A stretch of DNA of 64,000 bases from a virus, in the IMG/VR virus record IMGVR_UViG_3300043427_001127, positions 32,001 to 96,000 of that record; one strand, given 5' to 3'. How positions within the stretch are numbered: the stretch's first letter is position 1; the number at the start of each line of letters is the position of its first letter. A program made the position numbers and the translations under genes. Under the pieces are notes generated by a model. That model did not search any database, was not told the DNA's origin, and saw nothing but the letters and a program-made list of their open reading frames with translations. Below, one piece after another: positions 2 through 26,713 of the stretch.

Positions 2-142
2 GTTGACGAAAAAATTGAAACTCTTCAATCTGATTTAGAAAAACTCAAAGAGTATAAACTCAAACTGCAAGGCGGATTGGAAACCTTAGAGATTATTATT
101 AAAGAAACCACAAATACAGAGGAAACAACCTCAGAGGATTAA
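2..142 (+). CDS. 3' end of a small coiled-coil hypothetical protein (partial)
   Basis: Open frame VDEKIETLQSDLEKLKEYKLKLQGGLETLE...SED* ending at a TAA that overlaps the next ATG (TAATG, 140-144). Confidence 0.7.
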   Translation, partial: VDEKIETLQSDLEKLKEYKLKLQGGLETLEIIIKETTNTEETTSED

Positions 143-477
143 TGTCTGCATATTCTATTAATCTACCCGTAGAAAAAAACGCAAACTTCGACACCACATT
201 AACTATTGCCGATGAAGACAATGGATTGCCTTTAAATCTTACTGGATTTACTGCGGAGGCAAAGATGAAACGTTCTTTTGCGTCCACCACATCTCATGCC
301 ATGAGTGTAGAGTTTGTTGATAGATTATCTGGTGTTATTAGATTATCTTTGACCCCGCAACAGTCATCAGTCCTGACCGCAAAAAGATATGTTTATGATG
401 TTGTAATAACTTCTCCTTCTGGAGTTAAAACTAGAGTTGTTGAAGGCATTGTAGAAGTTTCTCCAGGAGTAACCTAA
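142..477 (+). CDS. Small virion structural protein (beta-sandwich, BppU-N-like)
   Basis: 111 aa; NLTGFTAEAKMKRS...GVIRLSLT...RYVYDV...TRVVEG.VEVSPGVT pattern typical of cyanomyovirus structural clusters; TAATG coupling at both ends. Confidence 0.75.
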   Translation: MSAYSINLPVEKNANFDTTLTIADEDNGLPLNLTGFTAEAKMKRSFASTTSHAMSVEFVDRLSGVIRLSLTPQQSSVLTAKRYVYDVVITSPSGVKTRVVEGIVEVSPGVT

Positions 478-1169
478 TGGCAGACTATAGAGTTACGGTA
501 GGGGGAAGAAAACAATATAAGGTAGGAATCAGTTATCAGATTCCTTCTAAATCATTACAATATCTAAATGAGATACTAGACGATTTTAGTGGAGAGTTTG
601 ATGATAACAATACCTCCTTCTTATTAAAGTTAGAAGGCGAACCCTACTACCCTATAAATGAACAACAAATTTTAGTATCATTGAATAATATTATTTTAGA
701 ACCAAAAGTTGATTATCAAATCACTGGAAATACTATTGTCTTTACTACACCACCACCACAAGGTTCCGAGTTTTTCTGTGTTGCTATGGCAACTACAGCA
801 GATTTAACCAGAACTATTAACTTTATTATCGAAGCTGGTTCTGGTGATATGACTCCTGGAATAAAAGGTCAAGTTACATTAGATATTACTGGTACTATAG
901 ATTCTTGGACAGTCATTGCCGACCAACCTGGATATGCTTTATTGGACATAAAAAAATGTTCATATCAAAACTATCCGTTAATGACATCCATAACAGGTAC
1001 AGAAAAACCATACATAGGAAGTCCTAATAATCCAACAGAAACAAAGAGAAAAGACGAAGATTTATCTACCTGGGACCGCTTATTAAATGCTGGAGATATT
1101 TTACAATATGAGATTGTTGCTGCTTCAAATGTTAAACGATTATTAGTTGCATTAAAGGTTCATTTGTGA
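477..1169 (+). CDS. Virion structural protein (baseplate/fibre-associated, two domains)
   Basis: 230 aa; ILVSLNNIILEPKVDYQITGNTIVFTTPP module common in cyanophage baseplate/fibre proteins. Confidence 0.7.
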   Translation: MADYRVTVGGRKQYKVGISYQIPSKSLQYLNEILDDFSGEFDDNNTSFLLKLEGEPYYPINEQQILVSLNNIILEPKVDYQITGNTIVFTTPPPQGSEFFCVAMATTADLTRTINFIIEAGSGDMTPGIKGQVTLDITGTIDSWTVIADQPGYALLDIKKCSYQNYPLMTSITGTEKPYIGSPNNPTETKRKDEDLSTWDRLLNAGDILQYEIVAASNVKRLLVALKVHL

Positions 1170-1198
1170 TAAATACATGTATGCAACTTTGCTATTCT

Positions 1199-1206
1199 TA
1201 TAAATA
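1199..1206 (+). promoter_or_regulatory. T4-type late promoter TATAAATA (second copy GATAAATA at 1168-1175)
   Basis: Exact gp55 consensus upstream of a GGAGG RBS and the ATG at 1240. Confidence 0.8.
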
Positions 1207-1239
1207 AAAGAAAAAGAGAAATCCCTGGAGGAAATTTAA

Positions 1240-2319
1240 ATGGCACTTCTAGTTCCAAATATTGGTGAATTAGACTCACTACGTTATCTCATCAACCAAA
1301 GCAATCACGTTGCTGATAGAGAAGATACCGCACCTAGAGATCTTGTTTTAAAACTATTTTCATCGGACACAACTCCTGCTGAGAATGATGTACCTTCTCA
1401 GTCTGCCTATTACGAGCCTTATCAGAATGATGGCAGCTTTGGTTACGGTTCAGCTATTGAGACTGGTTACCCAACTTGCGTCAACAACCGCACAGAAGCT
1501 CGTTACGATTACGATTCGCAGTATGGTATTCTTCTAAACGGTTCACGTTGGGGAATCACCCAATCAGGCGGAACTACAACTGCTACCTATCCCGAGCAAA
1601 CCTTTACTTTCACTGGTGCTGCTGGTAACGTTTATGGTTACTACATCACCCGCGCCAACAACATGCCACTAGCACTTCAAGGTGTTCTTGATGCTGCTAC
1701 TGCTTCAGCTGGCACTACAATCACTAAGGGTGAAGCAGGTGCTGCTGGCACTAAGGATTGTATCGGTCTGATCAACACCAACTTCATCACCGTTCCTACC
1801 ACTGCTAACAGTGCTTCATTCGGTGGTGTAGATGACCTAACTATCGGCATGATTGCTGGTGGTAACGCTGCTATCCCAGCAAACACTAAGGTTATCGGTA
1901 TTGAGAGAACCACTACAACTGATTCTCCTTACAACGGTCACAGAGTATACCTAAGCGCAAACCTAACCGCTAACATTCAGGACGCTACCGATCCTACTGT
2001 TGAGTTTTCATTCGGTAAGGTTGTAACTGATGTTGCACACCAACTACAGCCTGGTGACGTAATCTATATTGCTGGTGGTACTTCAACTACTGGCGGTACT
2101 GTTGCTGCTAACACATATACTGTTTACAAAGTAAACTCAACAACTGAGTTCACAACTACACCAGCACTTCTAACCTCGGGTGGCACTGCTTTCACTGGCA
2201 ACAGTGACGTAACTCTCTACAGCGCAATCATGTACGCTGAGAGATTCACAAACGGTCCTTACGAGATTCAGAACAACGGTGACCAGATTAAGATCACCCT
2301 CAACATCAGCCTCGACTGA
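1240..2319 (+). CDS. Probably abundant virion structural protein; putative fibre 'bead' subunit with two inserted modules
   Basis: 359 aa; core MALLVPNIGE...LVLKLF...ATYPEQTFTF...VYGYY /insert/ AERFTNGPY...GDQIKITL; own late promoter, strong RBS, own terminator; gp23-like codon usage. Confidence 0.7.
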   Translation: MALLVPNIGELDSLRYLINQSNHVADREDTAPRDLVLKLFSSDTTPAENDVPSQSAYYEPYQNDGSFGYGSAIETGYPTCVNNRTEARYDYDSQYGILLNGSRWGITQSGGTTTATYPEQTFTFTGAAGNVYGYYITRANNMPLALQGVLDAATASAGTTITKGEAGAAGTKDCIGLINTNFITVPTTANSASFGGVDDLTIGMIAGGNAAIPANTKVIGIERTTTTDSPYNGHRVYLSANLTANIQDATDPTVEFSFGKVVTDVAHQLQPGDVIYIAGGTSTTGGTVAANTYTVYKVNSTTEFTTTPALLTSGGTAFTGNSDVTLYSAIMYAERFTNGPYEIQNNGDQIKITLNISLD

Positions 2320-2354
2320 TATCTCCTAGAAAAGAATACTTTTCTATATTATTT

Positions 2355-2385
2355 GGGGATTGCTGCCTTGGCAATCCCCTTTTTT
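2355..2385 (+). terminator. Rho-independent terminator
   Basis: GGGGATTGCT-gcctt-GGCAATCCCC followed by a T-run. Confidence 0.85.
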
Positions 2386-2408
2386 ACTAAAAGAGGGCTT
2401 GGTAATAC

Positions 2409-5400
2409 ATGGCGTCATACGTTTACGATAGTAACGACAGTTATCCTTTTTCCTCAGTAGATAATGGGTTTGTCTACGTCAGACCCGCGACATCTACTGA
2501 GGATTTTGGTGCTATTAACGTATCTGCCACTTCACAAGAATCATATGCAGAAATAACAGTAAAGCAAAACAACGATACTGCGTTTGGTTTTGCTACTGTA
2601 AATGGTACTGCAAAGTACTATAAACCTAAAAAATATTCTTACTCATCATCTTCTGATAATCTCTTCGCTGAAGAAGATAATGGGTTAATAACTAATGCAA
2701 AGACTTCAACGGATGATTACGGTACTCTAACAGCTGAAGATGGCATAAGCGTTAGAGAAGACAGGTATCGTATTGATGTAAGTCAAACCATCTTGGCAAT
2801 GGAGCCAGGATACACATATTCATCAGCATCTGCTCTAGTAGCGTTTGTAGAAAAAACAGATGCTTCTACTTTGTTATTATCAATCTATGGCGGTTCTTCG
2901 TTAACTGGAGTTACTGCTGCTATTTCTAAAGTTGCTATTGCTTGGGTTGGTAATGGAACTCCATTTGAGATTGGTGGGTCTGCTAATGAGATTGTAAAAG
3001 CATTCTCAACAGTCGGAACTTCTGGTCCGCTCCGATTGGATGTCGCCTCAACAGAGGCGCATATCAGAAGCTATGACTTTGAAAATGTACTGCCATTCAA
3101 CATAGTTGATTATGGTTCTCTTGGTTTAGTATCAAACCCTGATATTGATTTTGGGTTTGTGTCTCAACCAAATGCTGGGGGGGAAAAGGATTACGGGCTG
3201 ATCGTAAATGATTCTGAAGAAACGCCATTTGGTCTCTACGAAACAAATGGTATAGGTTTAGAATCTTTCAGCAAGCAAACACCAGCAGAAACAGTACCAT
3301 TTACATTAAGTGGCGAAGTTGTTCTACCTCTTGCTGTAAGCATCAAAGGTGTTGGATCTGTAAACCTCAGTGGTGCAGCAGTTGAGAAGAATACCGAAGA
3401 TTATGTAGGAACAGGTAACCTATTCAATACCTCTGGTGCTGCCGAAGTATTTGGCGCAAACCCACCAGAAGACTTCTCGCTATTTGATATTACTGGTAGT
3501 GCAGCAGAAAAGAATACTGAAAGATATATTGGAAATAGTATCGTTTCTATTACATTATCGACTTCTTCTAATAAAATAAACACTAATAGTTTTATTGGTG
3601 TATCTATATCAGGTTCTGGTACTGGTGTAGGCGCTAACGGTGGATTTAATATTGGCAGTCACTTTAAATTTGATGGAGTTGGTGCGAGAAGATTAGATTT
3701 ACAACCTTTGAATGTTGGATCATATAACACTATCCAGTTCACTGCCATTCGTGGAAATGACAATAACGGGGGAGAAGATCCCGATACATCCACAGAAAGT
3801 TTAGTTCTTCAGTATAGTATTAATAATGGTAATACATTTACAAATGTTGGAAATATTGTTACATATAACGATGCGTCATTCAACAACTTAAAAAGTGTAT
3901 CTTTAGTAATACCAAATGATGCCAAAACATCTTCAACAATTTTTAGGATTTCTCAGTCTTCTTCTAGTGGTACTGGATTTGATAACTACGGCATAACCGA
4001 AATATCATTATTATCATCTCCACCAACAAGTATAGTATTCTCCAATGGATATACTAACCTGAAGTTCACCAGTGGTGCTGGAGAAACCACGCAACTCTTC
4101 GCTCTAAGCGGTTCTGGGGTGGAGAAGAACACCGAAGACTATGTAGGTACTGGAAGCACCTCAATCAGCGTTGTGAGCGTTGAGAAGAACACTGAGACGT
4201 ATGTAGCAGAACTAGCAGGAAATGTCACAGATCTATTCGCTTCCTACGGCGATCTGACGGCAGTAACAGAGTCTGAAGATTATGGTCTCATCACGCAGTC
4301 TGCAACTAATGTAGATTATCGCTATCTCTCTAGTGATTACTATGATATTAACGGTGCTGCCGTTGAGAAGTTTATTGCACAAACACCAGAAAATACCCAG
4401 CTCTTTACATTCTCTGGTGCTGGCGTAGAGAAGTTCACAAGTCAAGGTGGAGAGACAACTCAACTATTCCAGTTCACTGGAGCAGCGATAGAGAAGAATA
4501 CTGAAGACTATGTTGCTTCTGGTACATTCTCTACATTCTCTGGTGCTGCAGAGTCTGTAACTTACCGCTACAGCTTTGATTCGTTCATCCCATTCACCGA
4601 GTTTGACTACGGCAGTGTTACTCAATCACCAACAAACGACATTGATCTTGGTAGTGTCAGTGCTCCTAATACAGGTGGCGAAAAAGATTATGGTTCAATC
4701 ACATTTATTAATGAAGTAGTCCCTTATGGATTGTGGACTACATCTGGATTTGCTATTGAACTGTTTAGCAAGAATATTGTTGACAATGGCGGTACAATCA
4801 CCCTCAGTGGCGAAGTTGTTCTACCTCTCGCAGTAAGTATTATCGGTGTTGGATCTGTAAATCTCACTGGATCTGCTGTAGAGAAGAATACAGAATCTTA
4901 TGTAGGTATTGGTAATCTCTTTAACACTTCTGGTGCAGCTGAAGCATTTGGTGCTAATCCGTCCGAAGACTTCTCGCTATATGACATTAGCGGAACAGCA
5001 ACAGAGAAGTTCAGAGCAAATCCACCAGAAGACTTTGCTCAGTTTACTCTTTCTGGTGCGTACAGCAACCTCAAGTTCACCACTCAAGGTGGGGAAACAA
5101 CTCAACTCTTTAGTATTTCTGGTGCAGCTGTAGAGAAGAACAGAGAGTCTTATGTTGGTACTGGTAGCACTTCTATTGATGTTACTAAGGTTGAGAAGAA
5201 CACTGAGTCTTACACAGTTGCTCAAGCATCTATTCATGTTCTCTCTGATTATGGTGATCTCAGAGAGTCTGCTGGATCTACAGAAGACTTTGGATTAATC
5301 ACATCTGCTGCTACTGAGTTTGAGACTGCTGGTAGCGTAGTAAGAGATTACCTCAAGCTATTTGGTTATGCGGTAGAAAAACTTGTTGCTCAGACACCAG

Positions 5401-8400
5401 AGAATACACAACTATTTGATACTAATGGTACTGCGGTTGAGAAGTTTGTTGCTCAAACACCAGAACAAACAGTAACCTTTACATATACTGGCAGCAGTGT
5501 AGAGAAGAATACTGAGTCTTATGTTGGTACTGGTCAGGCAACATTAGATGTATTCTCAGAACTCAGAAAACTCATACCAGCATATGTTGGATTTGGTTTC
5601 GCTTTCACAACCAATGGTTCTGCAGAAGCGTTTGGTGCAAACCCACCAGAGAATACACAACTATTCCAAGTATCTGGTGCTGCTATAGTCAAGGTCAATC
5701 CAAAATGGAATGGTTCGGGTACTATCAATATTGATATTACATCGGTTGAGAAGCACACCGAATCCTATGTTGGCACAGGTACTCTATTTGAGTTCATTGA
5801 TTCGGATGAAAGCAGAACCTATGTCTATGATCTAAACGACGTAGTACCGTTCCTAGATGTTGATTATGGTTCTATCAGTGCTGCCGCATTTATAGAGATT
5901 GATTATGGTACTGTTGCTGGTGCATTCTCTGGTGGCGAAGTAGATTATGGCACAGTAATCTTCACCGAATCTGTACTACCATTCGGTTCAATCAACCTAA
6001 GTGGTGCTGCGATTGAAGCATTCTCTCCAAATACCCCAGAGAATACTCAGATCTTTGTTATCTCGGGCGCAGCTGTTGAGAAGAATACGGAATCTTACGT
6101 TGGTGTTGGAACTGAATCTATTACTGGTAGTGCAGTTGAGAAGAACACCGAAGATTATATTGGTGTTGGCAATCTCTTCAATGCTTCTGGTGCAGCAGAA
6201 TCTACTGGTGCCAACCCACCAGAAAATATCCAACTCTTCGCTACTAGTGGCAATGCAGTTGAGAAGTTCAGAGCGAACCCACCAGAAGATTTTGCACAGT
6301 TTATATTCTCTGGTGTTGCGGTAGAGAAGTTTACTACTCAAGGTGGCGAAGATACTCAGCTCTTTACTCTCAGTGGATCTGCAGTTGAAAGGAATACTGA
6401 ATCTTATGTTGGTACTGGAACTCTATTTGAGATTGTTGATAAGATTGAAAGTAGAACGTATGACTACACTGTATCTCAATCCAATCTACTAAGTGTAGAT
6501 GATTATGGATTGATTACTGATGCCATTACTTCTTCCGAAGATTATGGCACTGTTGACATAGCATTCACACAAACTGAATCATATGGTGCAGTAGACTTTG
6601 ATTTCTTATTCCTAAGAGGAACTGCCTCAGAATCTTTTGGAGAAGGATTATATACTGCTTCTGGTACTATTACTATCAGTGGTTTTGGCAAGGTACGCGA
6701 GATTCCACGTTGGGTCAGCAAGGATGGCACAATCACTATCAGTGGCACTGGTACAGTACCTGTATCCGTTGCTGAAATCGGATCTGGTAATCTATTTACA
6801 TCATCTGGTGCTGCTGAAGTATTTGGTGCGAACCCACCAGAAAATATTCAGCTATTCCAAACAAGCGGAACAGCAACAGAGAAGTTCAGAGCAAACCCAC
6901 CAGAAGACTTTGCTCAGTTTACATTCTCTGGTGTTGCTATCGAGTCTGCTGGATTCAATCCACCAGAGAATACACAAAATATTTCCGTAACTGGTGTTGC
7001 TGTTGATGTAACTTCTGTATCTGAGATTGGCACTGGATCTCTATTCACTGCATTTGGTGCTGCTGAAGTATTTGGTGCAAATCCACCAGAATCCACACAA
7101 CTCTTTGTCTACTCAGGTGTTGCTACCGAGAAGAACACAGAGTCTTATATTGGCGCAGGAACAACTGAGATTGACGTTACACACACAATGCGTTTCGTTC
7201 CAAACTGGATCGGTAATGGAACAATCAATATTGATGTCGAATCTACTGAAAAGAATACCGAATCTTATGTTGGTTCTGGTAACGCATTCACATTTATTGA
7301 TTCTGAAGAGAGAAGAACTTACGATTACACAGTTGAAACTGTCGAAGTTGTCAATGAGTATAGAAATCTTATTAAGGATGCTACAACATCCACAGAAGAT
7401 TATGGTCTGATTTCTTCTATTGCCAGTGAGTTTATTGATAACGGCACTACAGTAAGAAACTACATTGAGATTATTCCAACTTCTATTGTTCGCTCAACTC
7501 CCAGAGAGATTGCTTCTGGTTCTCTATTTGCAACATCTGGTGCTGCAGAAGTCTTTGGAGTCAACCCACCAGAGAATACACAGCTATTCACATACACTGG
7601 TGCTGCTTCTGACATCAAGCACACTGAGTCCTGGGTCGGTACTGGATCTCAAACTCTCACAGGTGAAGGTGACGAAGATCTCGTCAAGTCCTTCGTTGGA
7701 TCTGGTGTTCTCGTTAGCATCAGTGGATCAATCTTCTTCATTGGTTACTTCCCATATACTGATTATATTACATTCTTCACATCTGGTGCTGCTTCTTATA
7801 AGGAAGTCAACGCCTTCAATGGAACTGGCACAACAACCACATCTGGTTCTGCTGTAGTTACAAACACAGAATCTTATGTCGGTACTGGATCTCTATTCGG
7901 ATTTAGTGGTGCTGCTGAGTCTGTAACTTATGTTTACAATATTGATGTTGTTATCGGATTTAATGAAGTTGATTATGAGTTTGTTACTGAGATTCCATCT
8001 ATTGACATTGATTATGGATCTGTCGCTCTACCACCAACTAGCGGCATATTTGATTATGGATATATTCGTTACGAAGAAACTATTATTGGTGCGACAGGTC
8101 AGTTTACTTTCGGTGGTTCTGCAGTTGAAAGCAACACAGAAAGATACATTGGTACTGGCAGCACTTCTATTGATGTATTCTCAACCGAAAGAAACACAGA
8201 AAGCTTCAACGGTTCTGGTAACCTATTCACCGCATCTGGATCTGCTGAAGTATTCGGCGCTAATCCCCCAGAAAACACTCAACTCTTCTCTGTATCTGGC
8301 GTTGGCAATACTAGAGAGATTGCAGTCTACACAGCATCTGCATCTGGCACAACCACTCTCAGTGGAGCAGCGGTTGAGAGAAATACCGAAGATTATGTTG

Positions 8401-11400
8401 GTGATAATCCAATCTTTACGATTGATGTATTCTCCACAGAGAAGAACACTGAAGCATTTGCTGGCACAGGAACAGAGACACTCAGCGGTGTTGGCGCAGA
8501 GAAGAACACCGAGTCCTACGTTGGAACTGGCACCTTCTCTGTTCTGTCTGGCGCAGTGGAAGCATTTGGTGCTAATCCACCAGAGAACACTCAACTATTC
8601 ACTTACACTGGAGCTGCTACAGAGAAGAACACTGAGTCTTATGTTGGTGTTGGAACTGAATCTATTACTGGAACAGCAGTTGAAAAGAACACCGAAGCAT
8701 TCGTTGGTTCTGGCACAGAGACTTTAAGTGGTGCTGGTATTTACAATACCACCGAAGTTTACATCGGTACTGGTGTTGTTTCTACAATCTCTGGTGCTGC
8801 TGAAGCATTTGGTGCCAACCCACCAGAAGATATTACACTATTCACCTACACTGGAGCTGCGGTAGAGAAGAACACCGAGTCCTACGTTGGCACAGGATCC
8901 ACAACTGCAAGCGGTGTCTGTGTAGAGAAGAATACGGAAGCGTTTGTTGGATCTGGTTCCTTATCCACTGTTTCTGGTGCGGCAGAATCTTTCACTGTCA
9001 ATCCACCAGAAAATACACACCTCTTCGTCTCTTCTGGTGTCGCAGAAACTAGAGTTATCTATCTCTACAGATTTGAAACAGACGGTCAAGGAACATACAC
9101 AATCTCCGTATCTCATGTTGAGAGAAATACAGAAGCATATGTTGGTACTGGTTCTACCACTGCTTCTGGTGTTGCCATTGAGAAGAACACAGAGACATTC
9201 ACTGGATCTGGCGAACTCTTCACATTCAATGGTGCTGCAGAAAGCAGAACAATCAACCCAGAAGAAGACGTTGTTCTCTACACCTTTGTTGGTACAGCAA
9301 CCGAGAAGAACACAGAATCTTGGGTTGGTACTGGAACAGAGACACTATCTGGTACTGCAAAAGAAAAGAATACAGAAGTATATGTTGGCACTGGAACTAC
9401 CACTGCTTCTGGTATTGCTGCGGAGAAGAACACCGAAGTTTACATCGGTACTGGTTCTGTTTCTACTCTATCTGGGGCTGCAGAAGCATTCGGTGTCAAT
9501 CCACCAGAGAATACACATCTATTCGTTTACTCTGGTGCTGCCACAGAAAGAAATACAGAGGCATATGTCGGTACGGGCACAGAGACACTCAGCGGCACAG
9601 CAGTAGAGAAGAATACAGAGTCCTATGTTGGCACTGGATTTATCACTGCTCTATCTGGTGCAGCGGAAGCATTCTCCGCTCAGACACCAGAGAATACGAT
9701 TCTCTTCACATTCTCTAGCTCTGCTGCTGAAGCATTCGTTGCTCAACCACCAGAAGACTTTGCTCAACTTACATTCTCTGGTTTCATCACAGAGAGAAAT
9801 ACAGAAGCACACTTTGGTACTGGCACTGCAACTCTCAGCGGCACGGCAGTTGAGAAGAACACTGAAGCATACAACGGCACAGGAACTCTCACTGCTTCTG
9901 GTGTTGGACTCGAAGCATTTGCGTGGGCAAACTACAACGGAACTGGCTCTCTATTTGCTATCAGTGGTGCTGCAGAGGCATTTGGTGCAAACCCACCAGA
10001 AGATACCTCACTCTTCACCTTCACTGGATTCTCTGTTGTTCTCAATACATACAGCGAAGTTGGCACTGGCACAGAGTTTGTTACTGGCACTGCGATTGAG
10101 AAGAATACAGAATCCTACGTTGGCACTGGTCAACTCTTCAACTACGATGGTTCCGCAGAAAGCAGAACAATCAACCCAGAAGAAAATACTATACTGTACA
10201 CATTTGTCGGATCAGCAGAAGAATCCTTCACCACTCAAGTCGATGAAACGACGCAAATCTTTACTATTAGTGGATCAGCTGTCGAAAGAAACACAGAAAC
10301 ATATTATGGATATGAACAGTATATTACTGGCGGATCTGCTGTTGTTATAGCATACAGATCATATATTGCATCTGGTTCTCTATTTGCAACATCTGGTGCC
10401 GCAGAAGTATTTGGTGTAAATCCACCAGAAAACACACAGATCTTTACTTACAGTGGTGTTGGATTTGAAAGCACAACTAATGTTTACTATCCAGAAGGAT
10501 ACATTTATATCGATATTGATTCTGTTGTCACGGAGACAAAAACATATACTGGTTCTGGTTCTATCTCCAACTTCAGTGGTGCTGCCGAATCTACTGGAGC
10601 AAATCCACCAGAAAATATCCAGCTATTTGTTTACTCTGGTTCTGCTACCGAGAAGAACACCGAATCTTATGTCGGTCTATGTGACATCTCTGTTGATGTA
10701 TTCTCTGTTGAGAGAAATACCGAAACATACGATGCGACTGGAACAGCAACCCTCACTGGCACTGCAGACCAGAGCAATACAGAATCTTATGTAGCATCTG
10801 GCTCGCTATTTGCTATCAGTGGTGCTGCCGAGGCATTCGGTGTCAACCCACCAGAAGATACAGTTCTTTACACATTCACTGGTGCTGCAACAGAGAAGAA
10901 TACAGAATCCTACGAGGGTTCTGGTTCACTTTACAATGTAGGAAGTGGTGCTATCACCAGAGCAGTTGCTATCAACAACACCATTTACGTTACTATCACT
11001 GGTGATTCTGGTGATGCGAGAGCAAGAGTATTTGTTGCTTCTGGCACAGCAACTCTATCTGGCACTGGTGCAGAAAGTTACACTCGTGCTACTTACATTG
11101 CTACTGGCACAGAAACTATTTCTGGAGCAGCAACAGAAAGAAACACAGAATCTTATGTTGGTTCTGGTTCTCTATTTGGTTTCAGTGGTGCTGCAGAATC
11201 CACGGCAGTCGTTCCAACCAGCAATATCTTTGCAACATTCTCTGGTTCTGCTGGTATTGTCAGAACAAATATTGTCATTGGAGATGGCACACTATTCGCG
11301 TTTGATGGTGCTGCTGAGTCTGTTGGAAGAAGACCAGAAAATGATACTGTTCTATTTACAACTAGTGGAGAATCTCAGATTCTATGGAATCCTTTCCGCC

Positions 11401-11429
11401 CACCAAGAAGTTACGTCACCATTATCTAA
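2409..11429 (+). CDS. Giant (3006 aa) repetitive virion protein, putative fibre thread
   Basis: Uninterrupted ORF built from ~19-20-aa units (SGAAVEKNTESYVGTG.., SGAAEAFGANPPENTQLF..) with interspersed DYG clusters; located in the structural region. Confidence 0.85.
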   Translation: MASYVYDSNDSYPFSSVDNGFVYVRPATSTEDFGAINVSATSQESYAEITVKQNNDTAFGFATVNGTAKYYKPKKYSYSSSSDNLFAEEDNGLITNAKTSTDDYGTLTAEDGISVREDRYRIDVSQTILAMEPGYTYSSASALVAFVEKTDASTLLLSIYGGSSLTGVTAAISKVAIAWVGNGTPFEIGGSANEIVKAFSTVGTSGPLRLDVASTEAHIRSYDFENVLPFNIVDYGSLGLVSNPDIDFGFVSQPNAGGEKDYGLIVNDSEETPFGLYETNGIGLESFSKQTPAETVPFTLSGEVVLPLAVSIKGVGSVNLSGAAVEKNTEDYVGTGNLFNTSGAAEVFGANPPEDFSLFDITGSAAEKNTERYIGNSIVSITLSTSSNKINTNSFIGVSISGSGTGVGANGGFNIGSHFKFDGVGARRLDLQPLNVGSYNTIQFTAIRGNDNNGGEDPDTSTESLVLQYSINNGNTFTNVGNIVTYNDASFNNLKSVSLVIPNDAKTSSTIFRISQSSSSGTGFDNYGITEISLLSSPPTSIVFSNGYTNLKFTSGAGETTQLFALSGSGVEKNTEDYVGTGSTSISVVSVEKNTETYVAELAGNVTDLFASYGDLTAVTESEDYGLITQSATNVDYRYLSSDYYDINGAAVEKFIAQTPENTQLFTFSGAGVEKFTSQGGETTQLFQFTGAAIEKNTEDYVASGTFSTFSGAAESVTYRYSFDSFIPFTEFDYGSVTQSPTNDIDLGSVSAPNTGGEKDYGSITFINEVVPYGLWTTSGFAIELFSKNIVDNGGTITLSGEVVLPLAVSIIGVGSVNLTGSAVEKNTESYVGIGNLFNTSGAAEAFGANPSEDFSLYDISGTATEKFRANPPEDFAQFTLSGAYSNLKFTTQGGETTQLFSISGAAVEKNRESYVGTGSTSIDVTKVEKNTESYTVAQASIHVLSDYGDLRESAGSTEDFGLITSAATEFETAGSVVRDYLKLFGYAVEKLVAQTPENTQLFDTNGTAVEKFVAQTPEQTVTFTYTGSSVEKNTESYVGTGQATLDVFSELRKLIPAYVGFGFAFTTNGSAEAFGANPPENTQLFQVSGAAIVKVNPKWNGSGTINIDITSVEKHTESYVGTGTLFEFIDSDESRTYVYDLNDVVPFLDVDYGSISAAAFIEIDYGTVAGAFSGGEVDYGTVIFTESVLPFGSINLSGAAIEAFSPNTPENTQIFVISGAAVEKNTESYVGVGTESITGSAVEKNTEDYIGVGNLFNASGAAESTGANPPENIQLFATSGNAVEKFRANPPEDFAQFIFSGVAVEKFTTQGGEDTQLFTLSGSAVERNTESYVGTGTLFEIVDKIESRTYDYTVSQSNLLSVDDYGLITDAITSSEDYGTVDIAFTQTESYGAVDFDFLFLRGTASESFGEGLYTASGTITISGFGKVREIPRWVSKDGTITISGTGTVPVSVAEIGSGNLFTSSGAAEVFGANPPENIQLFQTSGTATEKFRANPPEDFAQFTFSGVAIESAGFNPPENTQNISVTGVAVDVTSVSEIGTGSLFTAFGAAEVFGANPPESTQLFVYSGVATEKNTESYIGAGTTEIDVTHTMRFVPNWIGNGTINIDVESTEKNTESYVGSGNAFTFIDSEERRTYDYTVETVEVVNEYRNLIKDATTSTEDYGLISSIASEFIDNGTTVRNYIEIIPTSIVRSTPREIASGSLFATSGAAEVFGVNPPENTQLFTYTGAASDIKHTESWVGTGSQTLTGEGDEDLVKSFVGSGVLVSISGSIFFIGYFPYTDYITFFTSGAASYKEVNAFNGTGTTTTSGSAVVTNTESYVGTGSLFGFSGAAESVTYVYNIDVVIGFNEVDYEFVTEIPSIDIDYGSVALPPTSGIFDYGYIRYEETIIGATGQFTFGGSAVESNTERYIGTGSTSIDVFSTERNTESFNGSGNLFTASGSAEVFGANPPENTQLFSVSGVGNTREIAVYTASASGTTTLSGAAVERNTEDYVGDNPIFTIDVFSTEKNTEAFAGTGTETLSGVGAEKNTESYVGTGTFSVLSGAVEAFGANPPENTQLFTYTGAATEKNTESYVGVGTESITGTAVEKNTEAFVGSGTETLSGAGIYNTTEVYIGTGVVSTISGAAEAFGANPPEDITLFTYTGAAVEKNTESYVGTGSTTASGVCVEKNTEAFVGSGSLSTVSGAAESFTVNPPENTHLFVSSGVAETRVIYLYRFETDGQGTYTISVSHVERNTEAYVGTGSTTASGVAIEKNTETFTGSGELFTFNGAAESRTINPEEDVVLYTFVGTATEKNTESWVGTGTETLSGTAKEKNTEVYVGTGTTTASGIAAEKNTEVYIGTGSVSTLSGAAEAFGVNPPENTHLFVYSGAATERNTEAYVGTGTETLSGTAVEKNTESYVGTGFITALSGAAEAFSAQTPENTILFTFSSSAAEAFVAQPPEDFAQLTFSGFITERNTEAHFGTGTATLSGTAVEKNTEAYNGTGTLTASGVGLEAFAWANYNGTGSLFAISGAAEAFGANPPEDTSLFTFTGFSVVLNTYSEVGTGTEFVTGTAIEKNTESYVGTGQLFNYDGSAESRTINPEENTILYTFVGSAEESFTTQVDETTQIFTISGSAVERNTETYYGYEQYITGGSAVVIAYRSYIASGSLFATSGAAEVFGVNPPENTQIFTYSGVGFESTTNVYYPEGYIYIDIDSVVTETKTYTGSGSISNFSGAAESTGANPPENIQLFVYSGSATEKNTESYVGLCDISVDVFSVERNTETYDATGTATLTGTADQSNTESYVASGSLFAISGAAEAFGVNPPEDTVLYTFTGAATEKNTESYEGSGSLYNVGSGAITRAVAINNTIYVTITGDSGDARARVFVASGTATLSGTGAESYTRATYIATGTETISGAATERNTESYVGSGSLFGFSGAAESTAVVPTSNIFATFSGSAGIVRTNIVIGDGTLFAFDGAAESVGRRPENDTVLFTTSGESQILWNPFRPPRSYVTII
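4989..5047 (+). repeat. 59-bp near-identical intragenic direct repeat (partner 6864-6922)
   Basis: agcggaacagcaacagagaagttcagagcaaa(t/c)ccaccagaagactttgctcagtttac occurs at both positions with one mismatch. Confidence 0.85.
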
Positions 11430-11432
11430 TCT

Positions 11433-11440
11433 TATAAATA
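11433..11440 (+). promoter_or_regulatory. Late promoter TATAAATA
   Basis: Exact consensus in the intergenic gap before 11471. Confidence 0.8.
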
Positions 11441-11470: not shown

Positions 11471-11659
11471 ATGACTACTAGAGTCAAACTAAGAAGAGGA
11501 ACTACCGCTGAGCACGCTGCTTTTACTGGAGCGGAAGCGGAAATCACATTTGATACGGATAAAAGTACTGTAATCATGCACGATGGAGTAACTCAAGGAG
11601 GATTTGAAGTAGCAAAGCAGAGTACCTCACTTGCCCTGTCAATCGCCCTAGGTGGTTAA
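11471..11659 (+). CDS. Stand-alone Mtd_N-like (fibre attachment) domain protein
   Basis: 62 aa; VKLRRGTTAEHAAFTGAEAEITFDTDK...HDGVTQGG signature; ends SLALSIALGG. Confidence 0.8.
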   Translation: MTTRVKLRRGTTAEHAAFTGAEAEITFDTDKSTVIMHDGVTQGGFEVAKQSTSLALSIALGG

Positions 11660-19975: not shown

Positions 19976-20019
19976 ATAAATATCTATGAAACCTTATGTG
20001 GGGGGGAAAGTGAACCTTC

Positions 20020-20709
20020 ATGACGCTAGAAAATAAAAATTTTTCGGTTAAAAATGGTTTATCCATTATCAATACTGAGGTTATCAGTATTGACCGAAAG
20101 CTAAGAAATCTCACATTTGATAGCGCAGATTCTAATACGTTAAAGTTAAGTGGCAATCAACTTGTCGCTACTGCTGGTTCTGCAACCATTACCATACCAA
20201 ACTCTACTGATACTTTAGTAGCAAGAAATACCACGGATACTCTAAAGAATAAAACTTTAGACGATTTTTATGCCATTGGCACAATGATCGTAAACGGTTC
20301 TGGTGGTAACGAGGGACAAATCCTGAAAGCTACTGGCGATGGGATGACGTGGGCAGACACATTTAATGGTCTTCCTAGATATGTTCCATATGATTCTGAT
20401 TTTAATGCAGAATCACAAGGATTATATTTGGTAGATACATCAGATAATACTATAGAAATAACTTTACCAGATACTAGTGCAATTGATCCTTCTACAGGAT
20501 TGCCTGTGGTAGAAGATGGAGAAGGTATTGAGTTTATTGATGCTAAAGGAACTTGGGGTATAAATTTTGTAAGATTGATTCCCGCAAATAGTTCTGCTTC
20601 TTTTATTAACTTAGCAAACATTGAAGATAATGAATATGTTTTTGATTTATCTAACGCTATTGTTAGAGTAGTTTGGGATGGTCAATATTGGAGAGTATTC
20701 CCAAGATAG
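20020..20709 (+). CDS. Short fibre/baseplate protein with a T4 gp9/gp10-like C-terminal domain
   Basis: 229 aa; KNFSVKNGL start, TDTLKNKTL motif, YLVDTS...ITLP...G..IEFIDAKGTW. Confidence 0.7.
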   Translation: MTLENKNFSVKNGLSIINTEVISIDRKLRNLTFDSADSNTLKLSGNQLVATAGSATITIPNSTDTLVARNTTDTLKNKTLDDFYAIGTMIVNGSGGNEGQILKATGDGMTWADTFNGLPRYVPYDSDFNAESQGLYLVDTSDNTIEITLPDTSAIDPSTGLPVVEDGEGIEFIDAKGTWGINFVRLIPANSSASFINLANIEDNEYVFDLSNAIVRVVWDGQYWRVFPR

Positions 20710-20720
20710 GAGAAAAATAA

Positions 20721-21380
20721 ATGGCACTATATTTAAGTAGTGATTTATCTGGTTCTGGTAGTAGCAGCGGCGGTGGTGGAAGTGGAGATATTAGTAGTGT
20801 AATAAGAACCACTACTAGTTGGTATTTTCATGCACTTAGAAGAGATTCTGAAGGTATGTTGTATTACAATACACTAAGACCCACAGATGAAGGAACCATT
20901 GATGTTTTCAACGAAGAAAACACACAGTTGTCTGATTTACTTGATGGAGTAGATAATGTTGACGCAAAAGCACCTGTTCTTAGACTGAAACTTATTACAG
21001 GAGGAACTAAGTTAGCGTCAGAAGCAAATGAAACATATGTAGTTAATGGATTAGTATCCAATAAAAAAGGAAAAAATTTATCAGTTTCTATAACAAGAGA
21101 TTCTGATGGGGTTATTAGTGACATTAATGTAACTAATGGTGGCGAAGATTTTGGCGTGGGTGATGAGATTATTGTTTCTTCCACTTTTATAAAAGAAGAA
21201 TCATCTCAATCAGATTTACATTTATATGTTGATGAGTTGGTAAAAACATATTCAAACTCCCCATCTGATAAATATCAACAGTATAGATTTGATGCGAGAA
21301 AAATCTCTTACTATATCGATGATCAAGGTTATTTGGTTGCCAAGTTCGGAAACCATGATTATTCACAATCACCACGTTAA
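20721..21380 (+). CDS. Conserved cyanomyovirus virion protein
   Basis: 219 aa; FHALRRD.EGMLYY...KYQQYRFD...YYIDD.GYLVA. Confidence 0.7.
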   Translation: MALYLSSDLSGSGSSSGGGGSGDISSVIRTTTSWYFHALRRDSEGMLYYNTLRPTDEGTIDVFNEENTQLSDLLDGVDNVDAKAPVLRLKLITGGTKLASEANETYVVNGLVSNKKGKNLSVSITRDSDGVISDINVTNGGEDFGVGDEIIVSSTFIKEESSQSDLHLYVDELVKTYSNSPSDKYQQYRFDARKISYYIDDQGYLVAKFGNHDYSQSPR

Positions 21381-21397
21381 TCTCAGGAAGTATAAAA

Positions 21398-24300
21398 ATG
21401 GCTGAATTTAGATTAGGTAGACTAAAGTTCAACTGGACTGGCGAATGGCAACCAAACCGCGCCTATGTTCTGGACGATATTATCTCATTCAGAGGTAATA
21501 CTTACGTTTGTGTGGTTAACCACACTTCTACTGGTTCAGTAGAGCAATGGGAAGATGTTGATCTCAACGCAAGTACACCAAGATGGGAACTATATGTTCC
21601 TGGTATTAGAAATGCTGGTTCTTGGCAACCAAATACTTTCTACGCTAAAAATGATCTTGTGCGTTATGGTGGCAATATTTACATTTGTAAAGACAACCAC
21701 ACTTCACCATCCGACCAAAATCTTTTTTACCTAACAAACTTTGCTGGTAACTGGGATCTTTTTTATAACGGCACAGAAAACAAAGGAACTTGGCAGCAAA
21801 ACACTTGGTATAAAGTCAATGATCTTGTTAAGTATGGAAACAATATTTACCTATGCAATCTAGGTCATACTTCAACGACAGCATTTGATATTACTAAGTT
21901 TACTCTTTACTTAGAATCAGTAAAGTTTGAAGATAGTTGGGATTCGAGTACGGAATATCAACCTGGGGACATCGTTCTTTTTGGTGGTTATTCATATACC
22001 GCAAAAACTATTAATACTGACAAACAACCAAACAACTATGTTAGCACCGATTGGGAAGTAATCAGTATTGGTTTTGATTCAAAAGGTGTTTATAATCCAG
22101 CAACCATTTACGTTCCTGGGGATGTAGTTCGTTTTGGTGGAAACACATTCGTTAAAATGCTTACGAGTGTAGCGGGGATTGCTCCAAATGAATCAGGAGA
22201 TGGTGCGTTAAAATGGAGTTTAATCTCGGAAGGTTTATCTTATAAAGGTGATTGGGATGACCAAACAACATATCAAAAGAACGATGTAATCACCCTAGCT
22301 TCTAGTACTTATGTAAGCATTGCTTACAATAACTTAGGAAGAGATCCTGGAACCAATGATGCAGATGGATTCTGGTCTGTAGTTGCGAGGGGCGATGAAG
22401 AAAGTACAATCACAACAAAAGGTGATCTTCTCTACAGAGCGAATGCTACCAACGCAAGATTGCCCATAGGAGATCCTGGTCAGATTCTCTATGCTACAGA
22501 AAATGGTATTCCTGGGTGGGGTAATGCAAAAACCAGAAAAGTTTATTTTGTAAACTTAGATGGCGTTGATGATTTTTCTGATGGTTATGGCGGTTCTATT
22601 GGAAGAGCTTTTAGAACAGTTAAGTACGCCACTCAGATTGCTGCACAAGAAGGTTGTGACGAACAGAACCCAGCAACGATTTATGTAAAAGCTGGTGTAT
22701 ACGACGAAGAGTGTCCTATTACGGTTCCACCATATTGTTCTGTTGTTGGTGACGACAGTAGAGGAACTATTATCGAGCCAGGTCCAGGTTTAAGTAAGAT
22801 TCAAAGATTAATCATTGATTCAACATGTTTATTAAAGCCAGGAGATACACTGACTGTTGATACATTAGCAGGGGCAACCAGAACTGCAAGAGTTCTTCAC
22901 TTTGCTGATACTGACGCTACCCCCGTGGGCAGCGGAGAATCAAATCGCAAAAAAATGGTTTATGTTGAAACCATTGCTGGTGGTCCTATTATCGATACAG
23001 ATACTTTCTTAAACGGTACTGATTTAGGAACAGCACCTGAAGTAAATATCATTTCTGTTGAAAATCTAAATAACACCAAAGCAACTCTATTCTTCCTTTC
23101 GGAAGGTGTGATGCTCAAGGATCTTGTATTCAACAACCCAGACCCCGATGCTGGTTTTGTTATGCCAGATACAACTGGATTGACAATCGAGGAAGAAATA
23201 ACAAACAAACTTGCTGATATCACACAATGTCAGGTTGGGTTCGTTTTCTGGAGAATCAATCCATTCCTGGTATCACAGAATATTATTAAGAGTCCTTATA
23301 TTTACAGTTGTGCGGCATACTCATTTAAAGGTGTTGGCGCTATTGTAGATGGTTCTGTCAATGAAGGAAAAGATCACCCATCTCACTTTGCTTCTGGTCA
23401 CCAAAGCTTACTATTTGGCAACGTAACACAGTTCCCAGAAATGGGTGTTGCGATTTGGTGTAAGGACAATGGAAACTCAGAAATTGTTTCTTGCTTTACT
23501 TACTACGCTCATATTGGTTATGCTTGCTCTGGTGGTGCTCGTATGCGCTCTCTCGGTGGAAACAACTCTTGGGGTAACTATGGTTGTTCTGCAAGAGGAT
23601 TTGACCCAACCGAGATTCCACTTGAAGCAACTATTCGTGGCACAGAATTAAACTTCTATAATGATGCCACAACAGCAGTTGCGACAGCGACTGTTAATGG
23701 TAACTTAGTACTAGGAACTATTGCTCAATCTGGAAAGATTAATGGAGATTTCCAAGTAGGTTCTATTATTTCTAACGAAGGATCGGCAAATAATACTAGT
23801 ATTACTGGTGTTGTAGGAAATGGAACAACTGCCACTGTTTCATTTGCCACTAAACCATTTAATCCTTATGTAGTTGGTAAGCAAATTACAATCAGTGGTG
23901 TATCCAATAGTGCTTTTAATGGCACATTTACTGTTACTGGTATTGTTGGCACAGATGGTGTTATTACTGGTGTGCAGTTTGCATCCACTACTACTGCTAC
24001 TTTAGGTGCTGGTGGTACTGTTAGACCTGCATTGGGTAAGGCAAGAGTTCTTTATGTTCTCGCTGGAAATGATTATACTAAAGTTCTTATCGAACCAATC
24101 ACAGGATTTATCGGTGACGGTCAAAGATGTGCTCAGATTACAGGATCAGATCCAAACAATCCACCTCCAGTAAATATTCCAGAAGCATCTACTGTTATTG
24201 AAAATAGCGAGTTCCCATCCACATCTCCAAGTGAAAGTGCTGCAAACAGAGCAACAAGAGGTGCTAAGTTTGCTGTTATTAATCTACCAGAAAAACCAAA

Positions 24301-26713
24301 GATTACTAGTGCAGTAACATTTTCTGATAGTGTTGATGGTATTAACTATGTTATTCAAGAAATTGAAAACTACAGTGATGGTCCATCAGCTACATTTAAA
24401 GTTCTTGACGTAACAAGAACAGCAAGTTTAGAAAATACTGTAGTAACTATTCCTATTGCCAAAACTGGAACATTTCCAACTGGTGTTAATAGACCCGCTG
24501 AAACACATGTAGGTGGAACTGATATTACACTGTATAGTTTATTGACAGGAACAAATAATCAAGTTCTTATTGATAATCCTGGTCAGTTATTAACTTCAAC
24601 TTCAGCAACTAACATTAATATTTTAAATCCAGAAAGAGTAACAGCAGCTCTTGCTACATACAATACTGCATCAACAACTCTTTATCTACTAGTAGGTAAT
24701 GAGTTAATGCTACCAACAGCAGTTGTAGATGATCAGTTTAATAGCTATGTAACTGTTGTAAGAGCACAAGAGGGAACTATTGCCCAAGAGCACGCCGACC
24801 AAGACTCACCAAACTTTCCACAAAACGCTGTAGTTAGATTTGTAGTTAAATACACTCCAGTAACTACATTAAGACAAGACTCAACAAATCTTTCTAACGT
24901 TCTTTCATACAGTTCTTTAACTGGAAATGGTGGTCTTCCTGTATTCTCATTCACAGACCAAGAAGGAGTAGCAACGAAAACAATTAATGAAAATGATTTT
25001 ATTAAGATCGACAATGAGTTTTTCAGAGTAGATCTGAAGACTTCAACTAATCCTGGAACCGCAATCTTAACATTCTTCCCCGTTAAGTCTGTGTCGGAAG
25101 GAAGTGGCAATCGTCTTCAGATTCGTTATCGTTACAGTCAGATTCGTCTAACTGGTCACGACATGCTTGAGATTGGCACTGGTGGTATTGCTACAACCAA
25201 CTTCCCAGATGAACCTACTATCAGACCAGATGAAACCAAAGAAACCAACTTCATCGCTCCAGCTAGAATTTATTATGTAACTACCAACCAAGATGGTAAC
25301 TTCAAGGTAGGACAGTTCTTCAAGATTGACCAGGCAACTGGTAGATCTACAATCGATGCATCCGCTTTTGACTTGACTGGACTATCAAACCTACAGTTTG
25401 CTTTAGCCGATGGAACTAAGGTTGGCGTTGAAGTCACCAAGTTTGATGCTGATGCCACTTTAGGTGGTTCTGAAAGTAGCGATTCTTTCGTTCCCACGCA
25501 AAAAGCAGTTAAAACATATGTTGACAGTAACTTTATTAGTTCAAACCAAGATATTACAGTTGGTTCTGAAGCCGTAAATAAAAACTTAACAGTAAATGGA
25601 AACAGTACTGTTAGTGGTGATATGATTATTGGTGGAAGTTTACAAGTTAGCGGAACGACAACCAGTATCAACACCACTGAACTAATCGTGGAAGATGTAA
25701 ACGTCATTCTTGCTGGTGGAAACGTCACTGGTGATTCTGCTATTCAGGGTGCTGGTTTGACTATCAAAGGAACCACAGATAAAACTATATCATATGATGG
25801 TTCTTCAACTACTGGTAGATTTAATATTAGTGAAAACCTTTTACTTGCTCCTGGAAAATATATTGCTTCGAAACCAGCAGCTACCGATGGAACAGGTGCT
25901 CTAGCAACTGAAGAAATCATGATCGATACTAATGTCAGTGGTTCCACTGGTATTGGTTTAGTATTCCCAACCATTTCCCAGTTGGATATCGGCAACGCAT
26001 CAACTGCTTTAACTATCGGTGCTACAACAGGAACGACTACAGTAAGAAATAGTTTGATTGTCCCTGCTGGTACTACCACATTAGCTCCTCTTAGATTCAC
26101 ACCAACAGCAGCAGCACTATTAACACTTCCACTTCAAGGTGGTTTTGAATATAACCAGATTGCTTTCTATGCTTCTGCGACTACTGAAGGTGGAAGAGGT
26201 ATTATCCTCGCGCCACAAATCTTAAGAGCTGCTGCTGACTTCGCTCAGACTGGAACCACAAACACAGTCAGAAACGTATTCTCAGGAACAACTCAGGATG
26301 CCGCTCCATTAAGAGCAAATACATTATACAGATTTAGAGGTTGTTATTATTTTGCTAAATCAACTACCACAAGTGGTACTTGGAACCTGCTGTTTACATT
26401 CTCAAATGCTCCAACCAACTTTAGATATAACTCAATAGGAGCAAATGGACCTTCTACAACTGCATTGTTCTTCCAAAATACAACTGCAACTGGATCAACT
26501 GCTGTTACTCAAGCAGTAACTGTCACAACTGATTGTGCGATAAGATTTGAAGGTTACTTCGTATCAAACGCAACAACTGGCGGAACATTAACTCCTCAGT
26601 TTAACAAGAGTGATACTGCTAACGCAACTGTAAATACTCGCACCAACTCATACTTTGAGATTCAAGCTATGGGTCCAGCTAACCCATCGATTATTGCTGG
26701 TACTTGGAGTTGA
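21398..26713 (+). CDS. Tail fibre/spike with six CBM5/12-like repeats, a beta-helix region and a C-terminal head
   Basis: 1771 aa; six W/Y....Y...D.V...G..Y.C-type repeats; AFRTVKYA...IYVKAGVY.E...VVGD pectin-lyase-like opener. Confidence 0.8.
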   Translation: MAEFRLGRLKFNWTGEWQPNRAYVLDDIISFRGNTYVCVVNHTSTGSVEQWEDVDLNASTPRWELYVPGIRNAGSWQPNTFYAKNDLVRYGGNIYICKDNHTSPSDQNLFYLTNFAGNWDLFYNGTENKGTWQQNTWYKVNDLVKYGNNIYLCNLGHTSTTAFDITKFTLYLESVKFEDSWDSSTEYQPGDIVLFGGYSYTAKTINTDKQPNNYVSTDWEVISIGFDSKGVYNPATIYVPGDVVRFGGNTFVKMLTSVAGIAPNESGDGALKWSLISEGLSYKGDWDDQTTYQKNDVITLASSTYVSIAYNNLGRDPGTNDADGFWSVVARGDEESTITTKGDLLYRANATNARLPIGDPGQILYATENGIPGWGNAKTRKVYFVNLDGVDDFSDGYGGSIGRAFRTVKYATQIAAQEGCDEQNPATIYVKAGVYDEECPITVPPYCSVVGDDSRGTIIEPGPGLSKIQRLIIDSTCLLKPGDTLTVDTLAGATRTARVLHFADTDATPVGSGESNRKKMVYVETIAGGPIIDTDTFLNGTDLGTAPEVNIISVENLNNTKATLFFLSEGVMLKDLVFNNPDPDAGFVMPDTTGLTIEEEITNKLADITQCQVGFVFWRINPFLVSQNIIKSPYIYSCAAYSFKGVGAIVDGSVNEGKDHPSHFASGHQSLLFGNVTQFPEMGVAIWCKDNGNSEIVSCFTYYAHIGYACSGGARMRSLGGNNSWGNYGCSARGFDPTEIPLEATIRGTELNFYNDATTAVATATVNGNLVLGTIAQSGKINGDFQVGSIISNEGSANNTSITGVVGNGTTATVSFATKPFNPYVVGKQITISGVSNSAFNGTFTVTGIVGTDGVITGVQFASTTTATLGAGGTVRPALGKARVLYVLAGNDYTKVLIEPITGFIGDGQRCAQITGSDPNNPPPVNIPEASTVIENSEFPSTSPSESAANRATRGAKFAVINLPEKPKITSAVTFSDSVDGINYVIQEIENYSDGPSATFKVLDVTRTASLENTVVTIPIAKTGTFPTGVNRPAETHVGGTDITLYSLLTGTNNQVLIDNPGQLLTSTSATNINILNPERVTAALATYNTASTTLYLLVGNELMLPTAVVDDQFNSYVTVVRAQEGTIAQEHADQDSPNFPQNAVVRFVVKYTPVTTLRQDSTNLSNVLSYSSLTGNGGLPVFSFTDQEGVATKTINENDFIKIDNEFFRVDLKTSTNPGTAILTFFPVKSVSEGSGNRLQIRYRYSQIRLTGHDMLEIGTGGIATTNFPDEPTIRPDETKETNFIAPARIYYVTTNQDGNFKVGQFFKIDQATGRSTIDASAFDLTGLSNLQFALADGTKVGVEVTKFDADATLGGSESSDSFVPTQKAVKTYVDSNFISSNQDITVGSEAVNKNLTVNGNSTVSGDMIIGGSLQVSGTTTSINTTELIVEDVNVILAGGNVTGDSAIQGAGLTIKGTTDKTISYDGSSTTGRFNISENLLLAPGKYIASKPAATDGTGALATEEIMIDTNVSGSTGIGLVFPTISQLDIGNASTALTIGATTGTTTVRNSLIVPAGTTTLAPLRFTPTAAALLTLPLQGGFEYNQIAFYASATTEGGRGIILAPQILRAAADFAQTGTTNTVRNVFSGTTQDAAPLRANTLYRFRGCYYFAKSTTTSGTWNLLFTFSNAPTNFRYNSIGANGPSTTALFFQNTTATGSTAVTQAVTVTTDCAIRFEGYFVSNATTGGTLTPQFNKSDTANATVNTRTNSYFEIQAMGPANPSIIAGTWS

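Follow-up and report, generated by a model that had tools for sequence, protein, structure and literature searches.

A candidate bead-on-rope virion fibre encoded by a T4-like marine cyanomyovirus

The window analyzed here, a stretch of 64,000 nucleotides (positions 32,001 to 96,000 of IMG/VR virus record IMGVR_UViG_3300043427_001127), belongs to a marine cyanomyovirus of the T4-like group and covers its structural region; the virus record totals 171,625 bases. Two adjacent plus-strand genes near the beginning of the window are the subject of this report. The first (1240..2319; P0001) encodes a protein of 359 amino acids (aa) belonging to phrog_10467, and the second (2409..11429; P0002), which has no late promoter of its own, encodes a repeat protein of 3006 aa belonging to phrog_11522. 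Both PHROGs are of unknown function. The products are called bead and rope below, after the roles proposed for them. We consider the chances somewhat better than even (roughly 0.55) that the pair makes up a two-component beads-on-a-rope virion fibre of the type found in phages GP4 and A1002, much enlarged and carried by a T4-like cyanomyovirus.

Expression signals and linkage of the bead and rope genes

An exact copy of the T4-type late promoter consensus, TATAAATA, was found on the plus strand at 1199..1206, 5' of the bead gene. A first-pass annotation of this DNA had credited the gene with two late promoter motifs; the second, GATAAATA (1168..1175, plus strand), which overlaps the upstream stop codon, is imperfect and agrees with the consensus at seven of eight positions. 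The other signals read at that stage were recovered. A GGAGG ribosome-binding site is located at 1228..1232 (plus strand), 7 nt 5' of the bead ATG, and the gap between the two genes holds the strong intrinsic terminator that had been described (2355..2385, plus strand), consisting of an 11-bp stem (2355-2379) followed by TTTTTT. The statement that late promoter consensus is missing before the rope gene was likewise borne out, TATAAATA being absent from the gap (2320-2408) and its next copy lying at 11433. Codon usage of the bead gene had been called capsid-like, and the correlation of its relative synonymous codon usage with that of the major capsid gene was indeed the highest of 42 genes (0.81, the runner-up reaching 0.63).

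The consensus TATAAATA occurred five times in the window versus 3.2 expected, and is not enriched by number alone. All five exact copies are on the plus strand, and four of them (at 1199, 11433, 19975 and 26732) are placed just 5' of open reading frame (ORF) starts. The copy at 11433 stands right behind the rope stop codon and is followed by a 62-aa ORF (11471-11659) and then by the gene for a structural protein of 2194 aa; the next transcription unit thus begins directly after the rope gene.

The same arrangement was observed in related phages. Within the IMG/VR loci, TATAAATA was present 5' of the bead homologue wherever sufficient upstream DNA was available, and a late promoter motif was detected in the gap between bead and rope genes at only two loci. 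Of 48 distinct relatives, 39 have a hairpin followed by a T-run 3' of the bead gene, with compensatory changes in the stem. Because promoter and terminator are both conserved, differential expression of bead and rope appears to be a conserved design. Transcripts of the rope gene would arise by read-through past the terminator, and beads probably exceed ropes in number, judging by the promoter, the terminator and the codon usage.

In a collection of phage genomes, 17 records contain the bead family and 16 the rope family; the phages are the same for both, namely S-CAM1, S-CAM3, S-SSM7, S-SSM6a, S-SCSM2R and Sf-FS3, and their gene order is 111-aa protein, structural protein of about 230 aa, bead, rope. 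Among 53 IMG/VR loci with at least 1.5 kb of sequence 3' of the bead gene, the rope homologue was the next large ORF in 48, and in the remaining five the sequence ends at the 3' side. Adjacent co-occurrence of the two genes across genomes was therefore seen in all relatives that could be judged (16 of 16 phage records and 48 of 53 IMG/VR loci). Rope homologues that are complete measure between 1020 and 3172 aa, and metagenomes contain over 900 homologues of the bead and over 350 of the rope.

Bead and rope proteins and their relatives

The bead is modular, with a core of about 135 aa and an insert of about 190 aa. BLASTP comparison to an insert-free family member of 132 aa assigned residues 1-138 and 330-359 to the core. 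The insert (residues 139-329; 1654..2226, plus strand), which is missing from core-only relatives, comprises a pair of small beta-barrel domains, of which one seems to be nested inside its companion. In a profile search of 1.84 billion representatives, many proteins of 119-145 aa matched the bead in three stretches (E 1e-21 to 1e-8), and alignment of the bead family with the insert-free family of about 135 aa using hhalign gave a probability of 99.95% (E 1e-37). The AlphaFold2 (AF2) model of the bead had a mean predicted local distance difference test score (pLDDT) of 76.7, with an N-terminus that is disordered though invariant; across the family the first 20 or so and the last 30 or so residues are nearly invariant. 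Structural comparison of residues ~148-327 with VIA-align returned endosialidase, FCCH and riboflavin-synthase-type barrels (Z 5-7.6), and weak matches to End_beta_barrel were observed in 6 of 42 members of the bead family. T4 gp8, to which the bead showed a weak match over its whole length (Z 5.7), was considered as its identity and was dropped because the relatives possess a separate gp8 gene upstream.

The repeat array of the rope (3354..11348, plus strand) was delimited with an iterated hidden Markov model (HMM) of the unit, which recognized 85-91 units of 20-21 aa. These account for about 55% of the protein and are interrupted by approximately seven acidic DYG modules. Two main flavours of unit were distinguished, one containing SGAAVEKNTESYVGTG and the other SGAAEAFGANPPENTQLF. 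Autocorrelation analysis gave a top period of 20 (z 15.6 over residues 1900-2660), and the rope was the sole periodic ORF among 53 six-frame ORFs of at least 150 aa in the window. The protein had first been described as consisting mostly of 100 or more units of about 19-20 aa; the array of short repeats is real, but given the count and the coverage obtained here both "100 or more" and "mostly" overshoot.

Besides the DYG modules, the non-repeat parts of the rope are a 315-aa N-terminal part, a Reelin-like domain and a conserved C-terminal tail. The N-terminal region (residues 1-315; 2409..3353, plus strand) contains DYG modules and is a candidate for the part that attaches the protein. In some relatives the first 124 aa or so form a separate ORF. 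At seven IMG/VR loci (L020, L048, L050, L054, L069, L070 and L078) an ORF of about 116-155 aa lies between the bead and rope genes and is similar to the DYG module at the N-terminus of the rope (phmmer E 1e-6 to 1e-10), which argues that this part is sometimes encoded apart or split. The Reelin-subrepeat-B-like domain was located at residues 416-533 (3654..4007, plus strand) by matches to Pfam PF21471 (E 2.5e-15) and to reelin chains of the PDB (E 2e-5). Other cyanophages, among them ACG-2014b and S-SCSM1, also have this domain in their baseplate-wedge or structural proteins.

The rope homologue of S-SCSM2R, ORF111, was detected in virions purified in cesium chloride under the label TolB (PMC12801897). 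The same paper discusses it as a non-structural passenger. Neither TolB nor any other propeller family matched the rope, and the TolB label of the S-SCSM2R homologue is unsupported for the protein studied here. The GenBank labels in this part of S-SCSM2R (20001-25240) appear to be misassigned, the bead homologue being named "tail fiber rope protein" and the rope homologue "TolB".

Core-only loci were collected from viral contigs with one member of the core family as query, and 890 six-frame ORFs of at least 150 aa were scanned for periodicity with no motif assumed. The top periodic ORFs had a period of 20 and were situated on the same strand, shortly 3' of the core gene. A protein with a period of 20 to 22 was found within 4 kb downstream of the core gene at 17 of the 28 loci with sufficient DNA, and upstream of it at none of 32. 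The foreign units resemble those of the cyanophage rope, as illustrated by KAYVGSGLIQTSGQAAVSKT versus EAYVGTGTETLSGTAVEKNT. A matrix built from 79 foreign units recognized 10 in-register windows in the rope; shuffled sequences gave 1.4 on average and 5 at most. HMMs of the foreign units gave negative scores against the rope, probably because HMMER corrects for repeat composition, and the unit HMM of the rope matched none of the ORFs of phage GP4, gp79 included.

A similar periodicity was observed beside genes related to gp80, the bead of the GP4 fibre. Gp79 of GP4, encoded directly 3' of gp80, had a top period of 20 (z 4.6-4.8), and its orthologue gp56 of BcepIL02, which is annotated as virion-associated, gave a z of 7.8. 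In mycobacteriophage BigCheese gp24, located beside a gp80 relative, scored a z of 5.6, and an ORF next to a gp80 relative in a myovirus showed a period of 21 (z 9.3). The periodic protein of CharlieGBrown lies upstream of the gp80 relative, and the signal in Rollin was weak. Altogether, GP4 gp80 relatives were found in 492 phage records, 412 of them mycobacteriophages, and often adjoin "minor tail proteins" with a period of 20-21 residues; chain-like fibres may be common in siphophages. This unusual context of 20-residue-period proteins, common to both groups, is the strongest argument that the cyanophage pair works in a GP4-like manner.

When the PDB was searched by sequence, no phage fibre was matched by the bead, the bead family, the full-length rope, GP4 gp79 or the foreign rope L095. 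Nor did similarity to proteins of Anabaena phage A-1(L) emerge, although its gp80 and gp81, with which the pair had first been compared, are absent from the PDB.

Proposed assembly and alternatives

The docking of beads on the repeats was modelled by predicting the structure of a complex of two beads with five rope units, in three runs and with three controls. The complex score was 0.35 (0.40, 0.32 and 0.35 in the single runs) against 0.01 for the best control, with a contact agreement of at least 72% and a partner pLDDT of at least 33. The prediction, which the first-pass annotation had proposed as multimer modelling of beads with a repeat peptide, scored above its controls and was graded as weak support; no interface was reported. 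When the method was calibrated, 58 of 80 solved complexes and 2 of 110 mismatched pairs attained the mark; at scores of 0.60 or below it was reached by seven of those 80 solved complexes and by both of the passing mismatches.

A beta-structured fold of the rope repeats themselves was also considered. The AF2 monomer model of residues 1897-2660 (42 homologues, 43-row alignment) had a mean pLDDT of 28.1 and showed just scattered hairpins; no autonomous solenoid was predicted for this segment.

Relatedness of the bead core to gp80 is weakly indicated, through the fold and without homology at the level of sequence. The best whole-core structural match obtained with VIA-align was 8jou_a, which is GP4 gp80 (ten chains in the entry), with an rmsd (root mean square deviation) of 4.1 over 120 of 136 residues and a Z of 7.5, a value within the range typical of the best chance matches. 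In the ESM Atlas the bead was linked to a cluster composed 100% of PF23140 Gp80 (feature score 0.95, 194 shared features, structure TM 0.72), PF23140 being the family "Podophage GP4 fiber I protein gp80". When this family was searched against insert-free core proteins, 3 of 62 matched, all below threshold (best E 1.5e-4, 22.6 bits versus a cut-off of 27). The top PDB match of the core-family profile was fibre protein gp41 of A1002 (26la/44nx), at a non-significant E of 0.15.

An abundant bead docked on a scarce repeat thread, as the first-pass annotation had it, is the best-supported reading because the two genes are strictly adjacent, because promoter and terminator are conserved, and because insert-free relatives of the core lie upstream of 20-residue-period proteins. 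The repeats without a predicted autonomous fold and the weak support from the complex prediction add to this. The precedent cited with that proposal, A-1(L), proved wrong. The analysis shows how the genes are built, their regulatory signals with the conservation of these, the adjacency of the pair, the modular bead and, in other phages, the association of bead-core genes with 20-residue-period proteins; we infer the physical binding of bead to rope, as well as how beads oligomerize, how many of them each unit takes, that rope transcripts come from read-through and where the fibre attaches to the virion.

Several observations weigh against a bead-on-rope fibre of the GP4 type. The bead, at 359 aa, is 2.5 times the size of gp80, and a 20-aa unit may therefore be too short to accommodate a whole oligomer. 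The complex score is low and, by the calibration, is more often wrong than right unless a good prior exists. As to the link with gp80, the Z of the structural match is within the chance range given above, and Foldseek returned nothing at an E of 0.001 or better for the bead model against the PDB. PF23140 had no match in the 359-aa protein and 42 relatives even at an E of 10. Using hhalign, probabilities below 3% were obtained for the bead or core family versus GP4 gp80 or six gp80 relatives, and 0.3% for the insert-free core family versus the gp80 relatives. Finally, the rope of GP4 is presumably gp79, the sequence of which is not in the PDB.

The low pLDDT of the repeats bears on a different explanation, namely that the rope is a self-sufficient homotrimeric shaft of beta structure in which each unit is a turn or hairpin, while the bead is a separate abundant virion protein that shares the operon and serves as a decoration, whisker or fibre accessory. 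An obligate homotrimer would look alike in an AF2 monomer model, which counts against the bead-on-rope fibre. Most phage fibres are homotrimeric, and their shafts frequently contain short Gly-rich repeats; one rope homologue carries the source annotation "isoleucine patch superfamily", a beta-helix family, and the weak link between bead and gp80 points the same way. A shaft of this kind leaves unexplained why 20-residue-period proteins follow core genes in unrelated phages (downstream, never upstream, at the loci counted above), why the same period recurs beside true gp80 genes, and why bead and rope co-occur strictly in both directions. Other large fibre proteins of the window are not periodic, and the complex score, though weak, is well above that of the controls. 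We regard a self-sufficient shaft as unlikely, yet as the most serious competitor.

Much less probable is that the invariant segments at both termini of the bead let it self-polymerize head to tail, in the manner of the A-1(L) gp81 trimers, the repeat protein being an anchor, ruler or scaffold that may not stay threaded through the chain: the near-invariant termini, the N-terminus being disordered in the monomer model as expected of an inter-subunit arm, and the threadless assembly of the A-1(L) fibre (PMC10966104) agree with it, but the rope homologue is present in mature virions (PMC12801897) and a 20-residue period kept in many phages speaks for a one-to-one contact that is repeated along the rope.

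Under the bead-on-rope reading, assembly could proceed as follows. Late transcription from 1199 would yield much bead mRNA, and the strong ribosome-binding site together with the capsid-like codon usage would make the bead abundant, while the terminator would pass a minority of transcripts into the rope gene, so that beads would far outnumber ropes. The rope would be an extended chain in which each of some 85-90 units supplies a docking segment, probably a strand that completes a beta-sheet of the bead. The core of about 135 aa would grip the rope, with bead oligomers docking on the units of 20-21 aa, and the two barrels of the insert would face outward, where they could plausibly bind sugars. 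The number of units would set the number of beads and hence the length of the fibre. At the spacing of A1002 (about 27 Å per site), 85-90 sites would give approximately 0.23 micrometre, or about half of this if two units were occupied per dimer.

Two genes upstream of the pair may contribute to such a structure. The gene directly 5' of the bead gene (477..1169, plus strand) encodes a virion structural protein of 230 aa (phrog_10330, E 1e-83), the N-terminal part of which is similar to the N-termini of other cyanophage fibres; the ESM Atlas pointed, as no more than a lead, to the N domain of the T7 tail fibre (score 0.85). This protein is possibly an anchor or a short fibre. The gene before it (142..477, plus strand) encodes a protein of 111 aa belonging to T4-like gene cluster 211, which matches phrog_1084 and phrog_3304 and, weakly, BppU_N. 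It occupies an equivalent position in S-SSM7, S-SCSM2R and S-CAM1 and is possibly a small adaptor or assembly protein. The genes for neck proteins gp13, gp14 and gp15, large terminase, sheath, tube, portal and scaffold are located 3' of the pair, as is the gene for the major capsid protein (40406-41827).

Significance and comparison with known systems

Few viruses are as abundant as marine T4-like cyanophages, yet little is understood of the way in which they find hosts that are so dilute. If real, a decorated fibre of great length and many binding sites would be a new adsorption device for these phages. The fibre type as such is already known, from GP4 in 2023 and from A1002 in 2026. New, as far as we have seen, are a chain-like fibre in T4-like cyanomyoviruses, its scale with a rope of 3006 aa, the insert-bearing bead, the conserved promoter-terminator design and a general signature of 20-residue periodicity beside bead genes.

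A broader proposal, which we advance tentatively and think somewhat more apt to fail than to hold, is that bead and rope represent a widespread two-gene module of podo-, sipho- and myoviruses, made of a gp80-like bead of about 135 aa and a protein with a strict 20-residue period whose repeat count is the ruler for the beads. It would then include hundreds of mycobacteriophages as well as abundant marine cyanomyoviruses. The cyanophage version would be by far the longest such fibre, of the order of 0.1-0.25 micrometre at the A1002 spacing, and would offer roughly a hundred or more weak sugar-binding sites for the capture of sparse hosts in seawater. The genomic signature, a bead-core gene followed by a 20-residue-period protein, could locate ropes that have not been identified, for example that of VP1, and could predict chain-like fibres in many uncharacterized phages. 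The spread of rope lengths among relatives (1020-3300 aa) provides a natural test of a ruler mechanism.

The role proposed for the rope resembles that of tape-measure proteins in that a polymer of one protein takes its length from a second, extended protein and a high ratio of subunit to ruler is needed. Tape-measure proteins differ in being helical, in lying inside the tail tube and in being expelled, whereas the rope would stay in an external fibre; the two are related neither in sequence nor in fold.

The precedent cited in the first-pass annotation, gp80 and gp81 of A-1(L) strung on a gp82 thread, does not agree with the published structure, which reports no repetitive thread. Gp82 is a trimeric anchor of 241 aa, followed by about 14 gp81 trimers arranged head to tail and by a gp80 trimer as cap (PMC10966104). 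The likeness lies in a long beaded appendage, putative in the present case, on a cyanobacterial myovirus, and in a fibre that uses one small subunit many times over, with its genes in a single small operon. The A-1(L) chain of trimers is threadless, while the present pair includes a conserved repeat partner, which argues for a design other than that of A-1(L).

The GP4/A1002 fibre is the true precedent. Chain-like fibres with dimers on a rope are described for the podophages GP4, VP1 and A1002, and in fibre I of Ralstonia phage GP4 a separately encoded rope joins five gp80 dimers (PMC13730344). The beads of GP4 and A1002 are dimers of a protein of about 140 aa on an extended rope (PMC13730344). 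As in the cyanophage, the gene for a small bead directly precedes that for a distinct, elongated protein, and the downstream proteins (gp79, and gp56 of BcepIL02) have a 20-residue period like the rope. GP4 differs in being a podophage with five dimers per fibre, compared to some 85-90 units in the T4-like myovirus; the cyanophage bead, moreover, carries a double-barrel insert of about 190 aa and has no detectable sequence homology to gp80.

In the Pseudomonas podophage A1002, 11 dimers of gp40/gp41 (about 147-171 aa) sit on the fibre-dock domain that belongs to gp39, a nozzle-rope protein (PMC13730344). Each dimer completes a beta-sheet with the fibre-dock region of about 268 aa, and the rope is about 300 Å long (PMC13730344), which corresponds to about 24 aa and about 27 Å of rope per dimer (PMC13730344). 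The residue spacing per dimer is near the unit of 20-21 aa found here. In A1002 the rope is a domain of the nozzle protein with 11 sites and two types of bead; in the cyanophage it is a dedicated protein of 3006 aa with hinge-like DYG modules and a lectin-like insert, served by one bead gene.

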